NCBI RefSeq assembly: GCF_003991155.1
Contig: NZ_CP031293.1
Direction: 5' to 3' (one strand)
DNA length: 64,000 nucleotides
Source: Escherichia coli
GTDB taxonomy: Bacteria > Pseudomonadota > Gammaproteobacteria > Enterobacterales > Enterobacteriaceae
In this document: positions 3,394 through 47,018 of the stretch, one piece after another
How positions within the stretch are numbered: the stretch's first letter is position 1
Layout of the letters: every line of letters begins with the position of its first letter
Translations under genes and position numbers: made by a program
The notes under the pieces: model-generated
The model's input: the letters and a program-made list of their open reading frames with translations, nothing else
Database searches by the model: none
What the model was told of the DNA's origin: nothing

Positions 3394-3654
3394 TTACTGA
3401 CGAGGATGCTTCAATAACTTCTTTACATAATTGCGCAGCAGCTCCGTATCGTCGTCAGGAATGCTGGCATCGGGCTTTACCTCGTACAGCGCCCCCTCTA
3501 CCTGATCAATCAACCTCTGTTGGTCATTTTGCGCCATATTGCGAAGCATTGCCGTGACGATAATCTCCAAAGCTTCTACCTGCGCACACAGTTCTTTCGA
3601 CTCTTCTTCTTTTTGGGCAAGCTTAAATAACAACTCAGCAATGAGATTTTTCAT
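3394..3654 (-). CDS. iraP: Anti-adaptor protein IraP (RpoS stabiliser under phosphate starvation)
   Basis: 86 aa [35 protein letters not shown]..., coiled-coil-like; position upstream of phoA. Confidence 0.85.
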
Positions 3655-4116
3655 GTCTGTATTTCCTTATCCAAAGTATGGAGAAGTTAACATTATGTTT
3701 CACAACTTCATAGTGTCTGGAAGTATTATTTTTATGACAAAGGAAATACTTTGCGCAAATATTTTTTGTTTGATTACCAGCGAAACGTTTCTCTTATTTT
3801 AATAATTACCCACACAAAATATAGGCTTTTAATTATCAACCTTTATTATAAATAAAAGTTATGAAATATATTCTCTTCGTTAACTTATAATTAAGAGAAA
3901 AAAACTCACTGCATGGCCATACAAGCCAGGAATAAATTAGCTTCCCGTTCATCATTTTTGTGATCTTGCGCACATCATTGAGATAACGCACTTTCTTCAC
4001 CAGTACGTTGCACGCTTTGTCAGCAGAAGATTGCAACATTCTGTCAGAAGGCCGCGAATCCCCCGTTTTGTCGTGGTAATGTATGCACTTTGTGTTAGAC
4101 GGGATAGGTTTTTAAG

Positions 4117-24046: not shown

Positions 24047-24880
24047 ATGGAACTCATTGAAAAACATGCTAGCTTTGGCGGCTGGCAAAATGTGTATCGG
24101 CATTATTCCCAATCACTGAAATGTGAAATGAATGTCGGCGTCTATCTCCCACCAAAAGCCGGGAATGAAAAATTACCGGTGCTGTACTGGCTTTCGGGCC
24201 TGACCTGCAACGAGCAGAATTTCATTACTAAATCGGGGATGCAACGTTACGCGGCGGAGCACAACATTATTGTTGTTGCGCCAGACACCAGTCCGCGAGG
24301 CAGTCATGTCGCAGATGCCGACCGTTACGATCTCGGGCAAGGTGCCGGGTTTTACCTGAACGCAACGCAAGCGCCGTGGAATGAACATTACAAAATGTAT
24401 GATTATATCCACAACGAGCTGCCGGATTTAGTGATGCAACATTTTCCGGCAACGACCAGAAAGTCTATCTCAGGTCATTCTATGGGCGGGCTGGGCGCGC
24501 TGGTGCTGGCGTTACGTAATCCAGATGAATATGTCAGCGTCTCGGCATTTTCGCCCATTGTCTCCCCATCGCAAGTACCGTGGGGACAGCAAGCCTTTGC
24601 CGCATATCTTGGTGAAAATAAAGAGGCCTGGTTGGATTACGATCCGGTGAGCCTTATTTCACAAGGTCAACGCGTTGCGGAAATCATGGTTGATCAGGGG
24701 TTGAGTGATGATTTTTACGCAGAACAGCTGCGGACTCCAAATCTTGAAAAGATCTGCCAGGAGATGAATATCAAGACGTTAATCCGTTATCACGAGGGTT
24801 ACGACCACAGCTATTATTTTGTCTCCAGTTTTATTGGCGAGCATATTGCGTACCACGCCAATAAACTGAATATGCGTTGA
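24047..24880 (+). CDS. frmB: S-formylglutathione hydrolase
   Basis: 277 aa; esterase D family, GHSMGG nucleophile elbow. Confidence 0.95.
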   Translation: MELIEKHASFGGWQNVYRHYSQSLKCEMNVGVYLPPKAGNEKLPVLYWLSGLTCNEQNFITKSGMQRYAAEHNIIVVAPDTSPRGSHVADADRYDLGQGAGFYLNATQAPWNEHYKMYDYIHNELPDLVMQHFPATTRKSISGHSMGGLGALVLALRNPDEYVSVSAFSPIVSPSQVPWGQQAFAAYLGENKEAWLDYDPVSLISQGQRVAEIMVDQGLSDDFYAEQLRTPNLEKICQEMNIKTLIRYHEGYDHSYYFVSSFIGEHIAYHANKLNMR

Positions 24881-24884
24881 TAAT

Positions 24885-24972
24885 GCCGGATGCGGCGTGA
24901 ACGCCTTATCCGCCTACATTTCGCCTGGAAACCGTAGGCATGATAAGACTCGCAAAGCGTCGCATCAGGCAT
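24885..24972. repeat. REP/BIME element between frmB and yaiL
   Basis: gccggatgcggcgtgaacgccttatccgcctac ... gtaggcatgataagactcgcaaagcgtcgcatcaggcat, two inverted REP-like units. Confidence 0.7.
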
Positions 24973-24993
24973 CTGCACATGATTTATCAATGT

Positions 24994-25533
24994 TTACCAC
25001 ATCAAATCATCAGGCACTTTGAAGTCAGCATACGGATCGTCTTCATCCTGCTCTTCGGCGCTGAGCGCGCTGTGCAACACAATACTGCTGGCATCACGCT
25101 GAGCAATTTTATCGGCAACGCTGGCGGGAATAATGGCGTATTCACCCTCACTATTGTTATCGACCAACAAGCGGGCAATAGCCAGACGACCATTAATCAA
25201 CTGCGTTTGCGTGAGCTTATCGACAAAAATCTTCTTAATCAGATTGCCGTCAGTGAAGTTAAAACCAATATCGCCATTGGCAATGGTAATTCGGTTCATT
25301 TCAATGAGCTGCTTCACCTGGGCTTTATATTCTTTCGCCAACGCCGCTTGTTTTTGTTGCTCGCTAAGCTGTTTATCACGCTCAAGCTGTGCCTTTTTAT
25401 TTTCTTCTACCGCCGCCCGAGCTTCACGCGCCTGAACACGCGATTTTTTCGCCGTTCTCTCGACCTTCGCCGCTTTTTTGCTGGTGACTAATCCTGCTTT
25501 GAGCAACTGCTCTTGTAAGGTAAGTTTTGCCAT
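24994..25533 (-). CDS. yaiL: DUF2058-family protein YaiL
   Basis: ORF-track frame to 25650; ATG at 25533 gives 179 aa MAKLTLQEQLLKAGLVTSKKAAKVERTAKKSRVQAREARAA..., lysine-rich N-terminus. Confidence 0.75.
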   Translation of the reverse strand: MAKLTLQEQLLKAGLVTSKKAAKVERTAKKSRVQAREARAAVEENKKAQLERDKQLSEQQKQAALAKEYKAQVKQLIEMNRITIANGDIGFNFTDGNLIKKIFVDKLTQTQLINGRLAIARLLVDNNSEGEYAIIPASVADKIAQRDASSIVLHSALSAEEQDEDDPYADFKVPDDLMW

Positions 25534-25634
25534 CTTTGTTTCCAAACCCGCTGAATAATTTTTAGCGAGTATACCTGTAAACGCCGTAGGTGTATTGGGG
25601 GGAAGTCCCTTTCGCCCCTGCTTAATAAGGCGCG

Positions 25635-26846
25635 TCAGGCATCTGCACACGGCTGCATTCGTGATCTCCGGCTCATCAAAATAAACACTGCCAGGCCGGC
25701 AACAAGAATACCCGGCGCAGAAGCGGCCATTACGCCAACCGTGCCAGTGCCTAATGCCAGCATTTTCCCGGCCAGTAACGGACCGCTCATAGCCCCCAGA
25801 CGCCCTACCGCCACGGCTGTTCCCACACCTGTTGCGCGGATCTGCGAGCTGTAAAACAACGGTGCCAATGCATACAAAACGCTTTGCCCACCTGTCGCAA
25901 ACAACCCCGCGACGAATCCCGCCAGCAACATACCGTTAAATGACGACACCGTTCCCAGCGCCAGCAGCGAAGCTAACATGTCGCTATAAATCAGTAGCGA
26001 CATGGTTACTGGACGCAGCTTATCCATCAATGCGCCCAACATTAACGTCCCGCTTGCCGCCCCCATTTGCAGTGCAAACATCACCCCTGCCGCCTGCGAT
26101 GGCTGGAATCCTTGCTCCACCAAAAGCAGCGGTAGCCAGTTGATCAACATGTAGACCACCAGCAGAGTGAAGAAATAACACAACCACAGCAGCAGCGTCG
26201 CGGTGGCCGTTTCTGGCGCAAATAACGCACGCAGTGGTGGCGCAGCCTGTTTTTCGCCAGCGAACACCGCCGACTCCGGCAGCCAGCGCATTAATAGCGG
26301 CACCAGAATCAACGGCACCACACCACCTACCCAAAACACCGTTTGCCATGCTAAGTTTGCCCCCGCGAAACCCAGTGTCGCCGCCAGCGCCGCGCCAATG
26401 GGAACACCGCAATACATCAGGCTCACTGCCGTCCCACGAAAACGTGGACCCGCGGCTTCAGACGTCAGGGCGATCAGATTCGGCAACGCCGCCCCCAGCC
26501 CGACACCGGTCATCAGCCGCGCAAAGACCAGTGAGGGGAAATCCCAGGCAATCGCCGTTGCCAGTGAGAACAAACCAAACAGCGCAACTGAGCCAATCAA
26601 AATGCGCTTGCGACCATAACGGTCCGCCAGCATTCCGCCAACCAACGCGCCGGGTAGCAAACCGAGTATTCCGGCGCTGAATATCCAGCCCATTTGCATT
26701 TTATCGAGTGCAAAAGCCTGGGCGATGCCACCCGCCGCAATGCCAGCCGCCTGAAGATCCAGCCCTTCCATCAGAGCGACCAAAAAACAAAGCCCGATGG
26801 TCAGCATCAGGCGGGATGAAGATGATGAAGGGGTACGAGTCGACAT
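25635..26846 (-). CDS. mhpT: 3-hydroxyphenylpropionate/3-hydroxycinnamate MFS transporter
   Basis: ORF-track frame to 26915; ATG at 26846 gives 403 aa MSTRTPSSSSSRLMLTIGLCFLVALMEGLDLQAAG..., 12-TM MFS. Confidence 0.85.
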   Translation of the reverse strand: MSTRTPSSSSSRLMLTIGLCFLVALMEGLDLQAAGIAAGGIAQAFALDKMQMGWIFSAGILGLLPGALVGGMLADRYGRKRILIGSVALFGLFSLATAIAWDFPSLVFARLMTGVGLGAALPNLIALTSEAAGPRFRGTAVSLMYCGVPIGAALAATLGFAGANLAWQTVFWVGGVVPLILVPLLMRWLPESAVFAGEKQAAPPLRALFAPETATATLLLWLCYFFTLLVVYMLINWLPLLLVEQGFQPSQAAGVMFALQMGAASGTLMLGALMDKLRPVTMSLLIYSDMLASLLALGTVSSFNGMLLAGFVAGLFATGGQSVLYALAPLFYSSQIRATGVGTAVAVGRLGAMSGPLLAGKMLALGTGTVGVMAASAPGILVAGLAVFILMSRRSRMQPCADA

Positions 26847-26924: not shown

Positions 26925-26975
<51 letters not shown>

Positions 26976-27021
26976 TCGTGCTGGGATGGGCATACAAAAT
27001 GCACGTTCTCGGCAGTCATCA

Positions 27022-46930: not shown

Positions 46931-47018
46931 GTAGGCATAATAAGACGCGGTAAACGTCGCATCAGGCATCGGCGCATGGTGTCGGATGCGCCAGGCGACG
47001 CATCCGACAATAACCTAC
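46931..47018. repeat. BIME between codB and prpE
   Basis: gtaggcataataagacgcggtaaacgtcgcatcaggcat ... gtcggatgcgccaggcgacgcatccgac. Confidence 0.7.

Follow-up and report, generated by a model that had tools for sequence, protein, structure and literature searches.

The window analysed here is a stretch of Escherichia coli DNA of 64,000 nucleotides. In it, yaiL lies between frmB and mhpT, and a short direct repeat brackets the gene. The genes, the spacer and the two repeat copies are as follows.

24047-24880, + strand: frmB/fghA, S-formylglutathione hydrolase, convergent with yaiL (ORF; Pfam Esterase; annotated as fghA in matching E. coli records)
24961-24980, + strand: repeat copy 1, CGCATCAGGCATCTGCACA(T)
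24994-25533, - strand: yaiL, DUF2058, 179 aa (ORF and Pfam)
25534-25630, - strand: mhpT-yaiL spacer; besides a GGGG(C)…CCCC element it contains the part upstream of yaiL that is conserved (…tttacaggtatactcgc…) and a stretch, ccttattaagcagg, with weak, decayed likeness to a REP 3' arm
25631-25650, given in + strand reading: repeat copy 2, CGCGTCAGGCATCTGCACA(C)
25635-26846, - strand: mhpT, MFS 3-hydroxyphenylpropionate transporter, 403 aa

Positions 24961-24979 matched positions 25631-25649 in direct orientation at 18 of 19 bases (18 of 20 with the last base), with a start-to-start distance of 670 bp and yaiL enclosed. A preliminary description of this DNA had reported a direct repeat bracketing yaiL about 670 bp apart; the repeat is real, with coordinates, orientation and gene placement as claimed. 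The 19/20 identity that it gave is slightly too high, and its own consensus contained two degenerate positions (R and Y). When 20-mer matches with at most 3 mismatches were searched for in the window, 3 were found, against 0.01 expected from dinucleotide shuffles of the window. The third match, with 2 mismatches, lies in an unrelated BIME.

46958-46977, + strand: Z2-REP tail plus linker, CGCATCAGGCATCGGCGCAT

The identity of copy 1 to copy 2 varied by strain, from 12 to 18 of 19 among 20 Escherichia genomes. At locus L004 (13/19) the copies are alike at the REP head and little beyond it.

Copy 1 belongs to an element that spans 24885-24983 and sits between the stop codons of frmB and yaiL, and is thus extragenic. 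Its parts are listed below.

24885-24917, + strand: Y-type REP, first half of the frmB-yaiL BIME, gccggatgcggcgtgaacgccttatccgcctac; forms a long hairpin together with the Z2 REP
24918-24933: inner 16-nt BIME linker, CTAC/GTAG side, atttcgcctggaaacc
24934-24970, + strand: Z2-type REP, gtaggcatgataagactcgcaaagcgtcgcatcaggc; copy 1 takes its REP portion from the final 10 nt
24971-24983: outer 13-nt BIME-2 linker, diverged, atctgcacatgat versus canonical atctgcgcacgac; source of the 8 nt beyond the REP in copy 1

In the BIME-2 layout, Y-type and Z2-type REP palindromes alternate in orientation with short linkers between them. The element showed this structure: its imperfect palindromes end in GTAG/CTAC, are about 33-38 nt long and form an inverted Y/Z2 pair, which folded into a single long hairpin (z=-4.6 for the + strand, z=-3.6 for the - strand). 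In L001 and L003 the inner linker has counterparts of the sequence acttcgcccgtaa(g/a)cc, and in most strains the outer-linker site reads taa-acatagataa-GTCGTGCGCAGAT-GCCTGATGCG. There is one Y/Z2 pair in the window and there are two in L001 and L003, joined by cgcatcaggca-TCTGCGCACGGCT-gccggatgcgg, which explains length classes differing by about 100 bp. Copy 1 thus forms the outer margin of a Y/Z2 pair that is intact and folds strongly. The preliminary description had called it the tail of a REP plus 8 nt of flank; the Z2-type REP tail was confirmed, while the 8 nt (TCTGCACA) are part of the BIME-2 linker and not a unique flank. Rfam matches to naRNA4 (RF02564, a REP325-derived RNA) at both frmB-yaiL REPs, spanning 24840-24915 (Y REP) and 24937-25003 (Z2 REP), stayed below the gathering threshold of 59.5 bits (29.5 and 20.4 bits); they indicate REP likeness, nothing more. 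A promoter and terminator consensus scan returned no promoter and nothing relevant at copy 1 or copy 2. The Y/Z2 pair presumably blocks RNA decay or modulates termination, as other REPs in 3' UTRs do.

We then compared the repeat unit with other REP loci. On the coding strand of yaiL and mhpT it begins with part of a 13-nt linker, GYCGTGYGCAGAT, and continues into a Z2 REP, of which it takes in the first 10 nt (GCCTGAYGCG); the unit can also be written GYCGTGYGCNNAT-GCCTGAYGCG. This linker normally connects a Y-REP to a Z2-REP within BIMEs, and a consensus, CCGCATCCGGCA-GTCGTGCGCAGAT-GCCTGATGCGACGC, was obtained from 16 canonical junctions within about 120 kb of Escherichia sequence. The 19-mer of copy 1, TGTGCAGATGCCTGATGCG, was found exactly in the mhpE-mhpT BIME of L003 (+4495) and of L002 (+6051); the K-12-like L003 spacer has at least four tandem BIME units, one of which holds this 19-mer. 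The mhpE-mhpT spacer of the window carries a related element.

26934-26981, + strand: Y-type REP, with the same 13-nt linker after it in truncated form, ccgcatccggca-GTCGTGC-tggg

A 43-nt query of REP, linker and REP returned at least 40 pieces per record, and a linker-centred 30-mer was used in its place. The 30-mer matched in 5383 of 5426 E. coli genomes, where the median number of places in a genome was 4 and the maximum 19; for REP-containing queries the median was 22 to at least 40 places. Linker frequency is thus an estimate from BLAST place counts and the roughly 120 kb of sequence. These results indicated that the repeat is a common genome-wide REP flank, a BIME junction sequence that recurs elsewhere.

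The preliminary description had suggested that the repeats are a scar of REP-mediated insertion or rearrangement around yaiL. Under such an explanation, an insertion or transposition placed yaiL, either by itself or together with the BIME next to it, between frmB and mhpT, and left the repeats behind as a target duplication or a recombination scar. The direct orientation, the near-perfect identity in this strain and the exact bracketing of a single small gene fit this explanation. REPs are also described in PMC3333891 as targets and substrates of recombination and IS insertion, and in strain FXCREC004 IS621 is inserted in the frmB-yaiL REP itself. The distribution of yaiL speaks against it. 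YaiL showed 85-100% amino acid identity in 422 related loci across Enterobacterales, from Escherichia to Yersinia and Pantoea, and we found the gene in 5411 of the 5426 complete E. coli genomes; the sole truncation seen was an IS1-mediated deletion. We searched the E. coli genomes for a locus lacking yaiL with a single repeat copy left, using a 239-nt chimeric query at 80% coverage, and the repeat-to-repeat deletion junction was found in 0 of 5426. Strains without mhpT retain yaiL with copy 1 only, and the linker part of copy 1 is missing from L004 and from E. albertii. Outside Escherichia, relatives carry yaiL with non-repeated flanks: in the loci of 78 species, the yaiL flanks gave just 9-14-nt noise matches unrelated to REPs. 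Furthermore, the repeat is not specific to this locus, as judged by the same 19-mer in the mhpE-mhpT BIMEs of L002 and L003 and the copy at 46958. These results indicated that yaiL is an old, fixed core gene of Enterobacterales, vertically conserved and not mobile. The insertion of yaiL is already largely refuted, and we regard it as extremely improbable.

Copy 2 lies at the 3' end of mhpT, as the preliminary description had stated: it forms the last codons of the gene, the protein ends in ...MQPCADA, and the TGA is inside the copy. The TGA that ends mhpT (25635-25637) belongs to the REP head GCCTGA. Alignment to the junction consensus extended copy 2 into a longer fragment.

25631-25656, - strand: BIME-derived fragment, comprising the end of a Y-tail, the 13-nt linker and a Z2 REP head, GCAGCCGTGTGCAGATGCCTGACGCG; encodes QPCADA-stop and includes copy 2

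The fragment matched the majority consensus of the 16 canonical junctions at 23 of 26 positions (25 of 26 when natural junction variants were allowed) and an internal junction of L001 at 24 of 26. This 26-nt match to BIME junctions exceeds the 19-nt match of copy 2 to copy 1, which is a further point against an insertion of yaiL. The fragment is not extragenic; it covers mhpT codons 398-403 and the stop.

Alternatively, the mhpT 3' end could be ordinary coding sequence that resembles a REP tail and linker by coincidence, with nothing BIME-derived at copy 2. Beyond the initial 10 nt of the REP head, similarity to a REP 3' arm is weak and not significant in E. coli, the copy-2 region showed no excess structure relative to shuffles (z=-0.24 and z=-1.46) and no complete REP hairpin, and Rfam gave no naRNA4 match there. 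C-terminal tails of MFS proteins are variable anyway; those of MhpT orthologues generally are, and the homology break described next is by itself weak evidence. Against coincidence stand the 0.01 matches expected from shuffles and the 26-nt junction match at 23-25 of 26. The alignment of MhpT orthologues holds through ...LMSR(R/K)S(R/Q)M, after which the tails differ (QPCADA versus PIPASGA and others), and DNA homology with Citrobacter-type mhpT stops at ...ATGC, exactly where the BIME similarity starts. In E. albertii, a clear REP 3' arm, CGCGTTTTATCATGCCT, occupies the equivalent place upstream of yaiL (16/17; 0 of 2000 shuffles). We consider coincidence very improbable. Because MhpT homology ends exactly where BIME similarity starts, QPCADA-stop is, from the sequence, best read as captured BIME sequence. 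The earlier suggestion that the 3' end of mhpT is a captured REP remnant was thus supported, by the junction match and by orthologue homology ending at its start. Because the 3' arm of copy 2 is so decayed, the main support for reading it as a whole REP remnant is the linker-plus-head match of 26 nt. Copy 2 is a BIME remnant that stands as an orphan and does not fold, and not a functional REP.

Two candidates in this region were rejected. A split REP 3' arm at ...ggcgtttacaggt upstream of yaiL was hinted at by an MFE fold; 17 of 200 shuffles folded as well, and other genera conserve this stretch as part of the sequence upstream of yaiL. MhpT-YaiL fusion proteins are not a regular product; they are rare frameshift or assembly variants.

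We also examined whether gene conversion, between the two copies or within the local BIME family, keeps the copies more alike than independent decay allows. Some linker variants are shared by both copies: TGTGCA/TGTGCA in the window, L088 and L089, TGCGC/TGCGC in K-12-like strains, and the rare TGCAC/TGCAC in E. whittamii. Shared variants in three lineages could reflect some sequence exchange between the copies as opposed to fully independent descent. The comparison is a plain tally across the sampled genomes, and in 9 of 19 of them the two copies disagreed at the variable position. For sites 670 bp apart, concordance is explained by ordinary haplotype linkage, and the copy-2 differences are single synonymous third-position changes (tgt/tgc, gca/gcc/gct). 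Concerted evolution is improbable as the cause of the likeness. A combined reading, in which the mhpT tail is an exapted BIME linker and REP head and the coding and non-coding copies 670 bp apart still exchange by gene conversion, is equally improbable. If it were true, repeat homogenisation would leak into a protein C-terminus, for example in the Ala-to-Thr change of E. whittamii that matches its copy-1 variant.

Given the repeat itself, the identity of its linker, the recurrence at several loci, the break in mhpT homology and the constancy of yaiL, all of which were observed directly, both copies are very probably fragments of one dispersed repeat family, BIME-2, and not a sign of yaiL insertion. 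The copies would be alike through shared family membership and not through an event involving yaiL, which would simply happen to sit between two BIME sites. Copy 2 would be a decayed BIME fragment at the mhpT/yaiL junction that has lost its hairpin. The mhpT frame appears to run into this fragment, so that the linker and REP head would encode the last six residues, QPCADA, and the REP's TGA would serve as the stop. A rearrangement at a BIME probably created the mhpT/yaiL junction, and it concerns the mhp cluster, which is variably present among strains, not yaiL. The likeliest origin of the fusion would be deletion or recombination at the BIME when the strain-variable mhp cluster came beside yaiL, and the fusion may have replaced about seven original tail codons of mhpT. 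Either the BIME or the mhp cluster may have come first.

The repeat pair is thus ordinary repeat-family biology. Where short direct repeats flank an E. coli gene, they should be compared with REP/BIME linkers before they are called insertion scars. mhpT is a clear added example of a decayed BIME fragment absorbed in the 3' end of a gene, with a REP TGA as the stop; REP catalogues and gene-boundary annotation could record it. The finding has little significance beyond annotation. The junction upstream of yaiL is a rearrangement hot spot, where the neighbour is, by lineage, the mhp cluster, a lacI/glxA fragment or lacZ.

We compared the locus with three known systems. As in target-site duplications and direct-repeat scars of mobile genes, two direct repeats bracket a single gene; unlike in those, yaiL has neither an empty site nor a patchy distribution, and the repeats belong to a genome-wide family with an identity of 12 to 18 of 19. 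According to PMC12306157, which summarises the work of Liang, Rudd and Deutscher (2015), about half of classical REPs lie within 15 nt of a stop codon and stall terminating ribosomes. mhpT resembles these cases in having REP-family sequence directly at its stop codon, and differs in that the REP head itself contains the stop and no hairpin is left. Ribosome stalling depends on a stable stem, and with the hairpin lost it probably does not take place at the mhpT stop. BIME-2 elements (bacterial interspersed mosaic elements of type 2), defined by Gilson and Bachellier as summarised in PMC3333891 (Ton-Hoang et al., 2012), consist of y and z2 REPs, also called palindromic units, with short linkers and vary in copy number between strains. 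Copy 2 departs from this pattern: it has no partner REP or hairpin, and it overlaps the last six mhpT codons and the stop. Otherwise the locus agrees with BIME-2. Copy 1 is in a canonical, strongly folding Y/Z2 inverted pair with GTAG/CTAC ends, a 16-nt inner and a 13-nt outer linker; the number of pairs varies, with one in the window and two in K-12-like strains; and copy 2 bears the same 13-nt linker with the first 10 nt of a Z2 REP.

Two direct repeats bracket yaiL on the plus strand, CGCATCAGGCATCTGCACA at 24961-24979 (copy 1) and CGCGTCAGGCATCTGCACA at 25631-25649 (copy 2), spaced 670 bp apart and identical at 18 of 19 positions. The preliminary description had called this a 19/20-bp repeat; the repeat was confirmed, but the exact identity is 18/20, because the copies differ (T or C) at base 20 as well. 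A search of the window with the degenerate 20-mer (up to 3 mismatches) found 3 matches, against 0.01 expected from dinucleotide-preserving shuffles. The ORF coordinates agreed with the earlier placement of the three genes:

24047-24880, + strand: frmB/fghA
24885-24917: Y-type REP, paired with the following Z2-type REP
24934-24970: Z2-type REP, gtaggcatgataagactcgcaaagcgtcgcatcaggc, whose end is copy 1
24994-25533, - strand: yaiL (DUF2058)
25635-26846, - strand: mhpT (MFS)

The mhpT stop codon TGA (25635-25637) lies within copy 2, and MhpT ends in ...SRRSRMQPCADA, so copy 2 does supply the last codons of mhpT, as had been proposed. The 24600-26000 region showed merely 95-96% identity to most E. 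coli genomes; identity of at least 99% was found to just 50 records (top, strain 2016C-3878, 99.2%), indicating that the window carries a minority haplotype at the frmB-mhpT locus.

Together, the Y- and Z2-type REPs make up a BIME between the convergent genes frmB and yaiL. Copy 1 had been read as a REP tail plus 8 bp of flank; the REP tail stood, but the flank is not unique, since TCTGCACA opens a 13-nt BIME linker. This was evident from a K-12-like locus (L003) and ExPEC XM (L001), where the spacer contains two Y/Z2 pairs and the junction from the Z2 tail to the next Y head carries the linker (cgcatcaggca-TCTGCGCACGGCT-gccggatgcgg). The single pair of the window (24885-24983) and the two pairs of L001 (4290-4480) and L003 (2290-2480) differ by about 100 bp, which explains the two-piece BLAST hits at this spacer. 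The BIME folds strongly (z=-4.6 and -3.6). REPs in 3'-UTRs generally act as RNA decay barriers or termination modulators, and by analogy the BIME of copy 1 may act in this way on the frmB and yaiL transcripts. The general role of 3'-UTR REPs also appears in review statements of PMC12306157 and of a 2026 bioRxiv preprint. In E. coli FXCREC004 (L002 2830-3809), an IS621 element (IS110 family; transposase annotated as frameshifted) is inserted in this BIME at the equivalent of window ~24920-24935, and homology to the window picks up again at the start of the Z2 REP. REP targeting is known for the family of IS621, and this insertion fits it.

We catalogued all occurrences of GCCTGAYGCG in the window and in eight Escherichia loci. 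The sequence before a Z2 head was regularly ccgcatccggca-G(T/C)CGTG(C/T)GC(A/C)(G/A/C)AT, and sixteen such linker/Z2-head junctions gave the consensus CCGCATCCGGCAGTCGTGCGCAGATGCCTGATGCGACGC. The exact 19-mer of copy 1 (TGTGCAGATGCCTGATGCG on the gene strand) also occurred in the mhpE-mhpT BIME of L003 and L002, and the third match in the window, at 46958, was another Z2 tail plus linker. A linker-centred 30-mer was present in 5383 of 5426 complete E. coli genomes, at a median of 4 and a maximum of 19 places per genome. Both copies thus belong to the BIME-2 linker/Z2-head junction family, copy 1 within an intact BIME that folds and copy 2 as a non-folding fragment overlapping the mhpT stop. 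The mhpE-mhpT spacer has a single Y REP in the window (26934-26981) and four to five tandem BIME units in K-12-like strains and the E. coli representative genome (L003 4400-4900, L004 2050-2560).

The coding-strand end of mhpT, GCAGCCGTGTGCAGATGCCTGACGCG, matched the junction consensus at 23 of 26 positions (25 when variants present in real junctions were allowed) and an internal junction of L001 at 24 of 26; copy 2 therefore shares a longer stretch with generic BIME junctions than with copy 1. When 19 MhpT orthologues were aligned, conservation extended up to ...F(x)LMSR. The E. coli and Citrobacter types are alike up to ...SR(R/K)S(R/Q)M, after which come QPCADA in E. coli and PIPASGA, RLAAG and the like in others. 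DNA homology between the two types stops at ...ATGC, precisely where the BIME similarity (gCAGCCGTG...) starts. The 26-nt junction match and the homology break at the same point support the earlier suggestion that a REP remnant was captured as the mhpT 3' end. Our conclusion is that E. coli mhpT has captured a BIME linker and REP head, which provide its last six codons and its stop, the REP's own TGA. The REP remainder 3' of the stop is badly decayed: in E. coli its similarity to a REP 3' arm (ccttattaagcagg) was not significant by itself, and the copy-2 region had no excess secondary structure (z=-0.24 and -1.46). A clear Z2 3' arm, CGCGTTTTATCATGCCT, lies at the equivalent site upstream of yaiL in E. 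albertii (16/17; 0/2000 shuffles). Copy 2 would seem to be a neutral fossil that has no function as a REP and provides a short cytoplasmic tail to MhpT.

Some E. coli-labelled records (L084-L086 3001-4173) carry a Citrobacter-type mhp cluster with a 390-aa MhpT ending in PIPASGA; there, mhpT has no REP at its 3' end and is followed by genes for an amino-acid permease and an S-methyltransferase, not by yaiL. In E. coli O145 RM12275-C1 (L094 1047-1412), mhpT is annotated as a frameshifted pseudogene. Upstream of the yaiL ATG, the reading frame of this gene stays open for 39 codons and passes through copy 2 (25534-25650, - strand). Rare MhpT-YaiL fusion ORFs of 579-617 aa (protein-database entries P0010, P0030 and P0004) arise when the frame shifts near codon 393 of mhpT or at its stop, and are probably sequencing errors or sporadic mutants.

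Among 20 Escherichia genomes with both copies, identity between them ranged from 12 to 18 of 19, usually 16-17; the 18/19 of the window recurred in L088 and L089. At copy 2, most differences fell on third codon positions and were synonymous (tgt/tgc, Cys; gca/gcc/gct, Ala). L004 and E. albertii lack the copy-1 linker (cactgatgaatt-GCCTGATGCG), so that little past the REP head is shared by the two copies of L004 (13/19); copy 2 is missing from E. albertii. In three lineages both copies have the same linker variant, a weak hint of sequence exchange between them by gene conversion. The foremost case is E. whittamii (L006 3885-3903 and 4547-4565; 17/19), whose rare TGCAC at both copies, which at copy 2 turns the MhpT tail into QPCTDA, is a possible trace of conversion between them or with other BIMEs. 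However, 9 of 19 genomes were discordant at the linker variant, and haplotype linkage over 670 bp suffices to explain the concordance, making exchange between copies 1 and 2 quite improbable.

The repeats had also been proposed as a possible scar of REP-mediated insertion or rearrangement. YaiL relatives were found at 422 loci, the best 80 of which had 85-100% aa identity and ranged from Escherichia to Yersinia, Serratia and Pantoea, and yaiL was present at 80% coverage or more in 5411 of 5426 complete E. coli genomes. The check proposed earlier was carried out directly, with a 239-nt query joining frmB, BIME, single repeat and mhpT, which found this junction in 0 of 5426 genomes at 80% coverage. 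The longest direct match (at most 1 mismatch) between the 250-nt flanks of yaiL at 78 species' loci was 9-12 nt in all but a few. REP-derived matches were confined to Escherichia loci with mhpT (longest 16 nt, L006); other high matches, in L050 (14 nt) and L060 (13 nt), were unrelated to REPs. On these four counts, the conserved relatives, the near-constant presence, the missing empty junction and the lack of REP-repeat flanks outside Escherichia, the insertion reading, with yaiL as cargo, was rejected. One truncated yaiL was seen, an IS1-mediated deletion reaching yahO: in E. coli AVS0756 (L087 3501-4378), IS1 replaces the yaiL interior through mhp and lac to yahO, leaving 48 nt of the yaiL 3' end, the sole yaiL loss open to inspection.

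It is the mhp cluster, and not yaiL, that the rearrangement involves. The neighbour of yaiL is mhpT in most E. coli, in E. whittamii and in strain E1V33, and lacZ, directly adjoining, in E. albertii; in ExPEC XM and Escherichia sp. MOD1-EC7003, from which the entire mhp cluster is missing, it is a glxA-like gene fragment and lacI. The mhpT-BIME fusion probably arose when the mhp cluster came to adjoin yaiL, through a deletion or recombination at a BIME. The glxA-family regulator fragment in ExPEC XM and MOD1-EC7003 is N-terminally truncated. In these lineages, the yaiL-upstream junction (L001 5047-5250; L005, MOD1-EC7003, 3560-4000; L008 3790-4000) corresponds to window ~25598 onward, with breakpoints about 25 nt apart between lineages, which suggests a rearrangement hot spot. 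An inverted repeat at 25598-25620, GGGG(C)-gaaagggactt-(G)CCCC, separates the REP remnant from the yaiL upstream region; it is kept in MOD1-EC7003 (L005 ~3925-3950), which has no mhpT, and thus belongs to the yaiL side.

REPs and BIMEs as a kind are well known. A search of one REP paper for the names mhpT and yaiL found neither, so the BIME-derived mhpT tail is probably an unrecorded instance, a small point at the level of annotation. The repeat architecture fits the published description of BIME-2 as y and z2 REPs with short linkers and strain-variable copy number (PMC3333891). Liang et al. 2015 (as cited in PMC12306157) reportedly found that ribosomes stall at REPs at most 15 nt from a stop codon; that mechanism requires a stable stem, whereas copy 2 has none.
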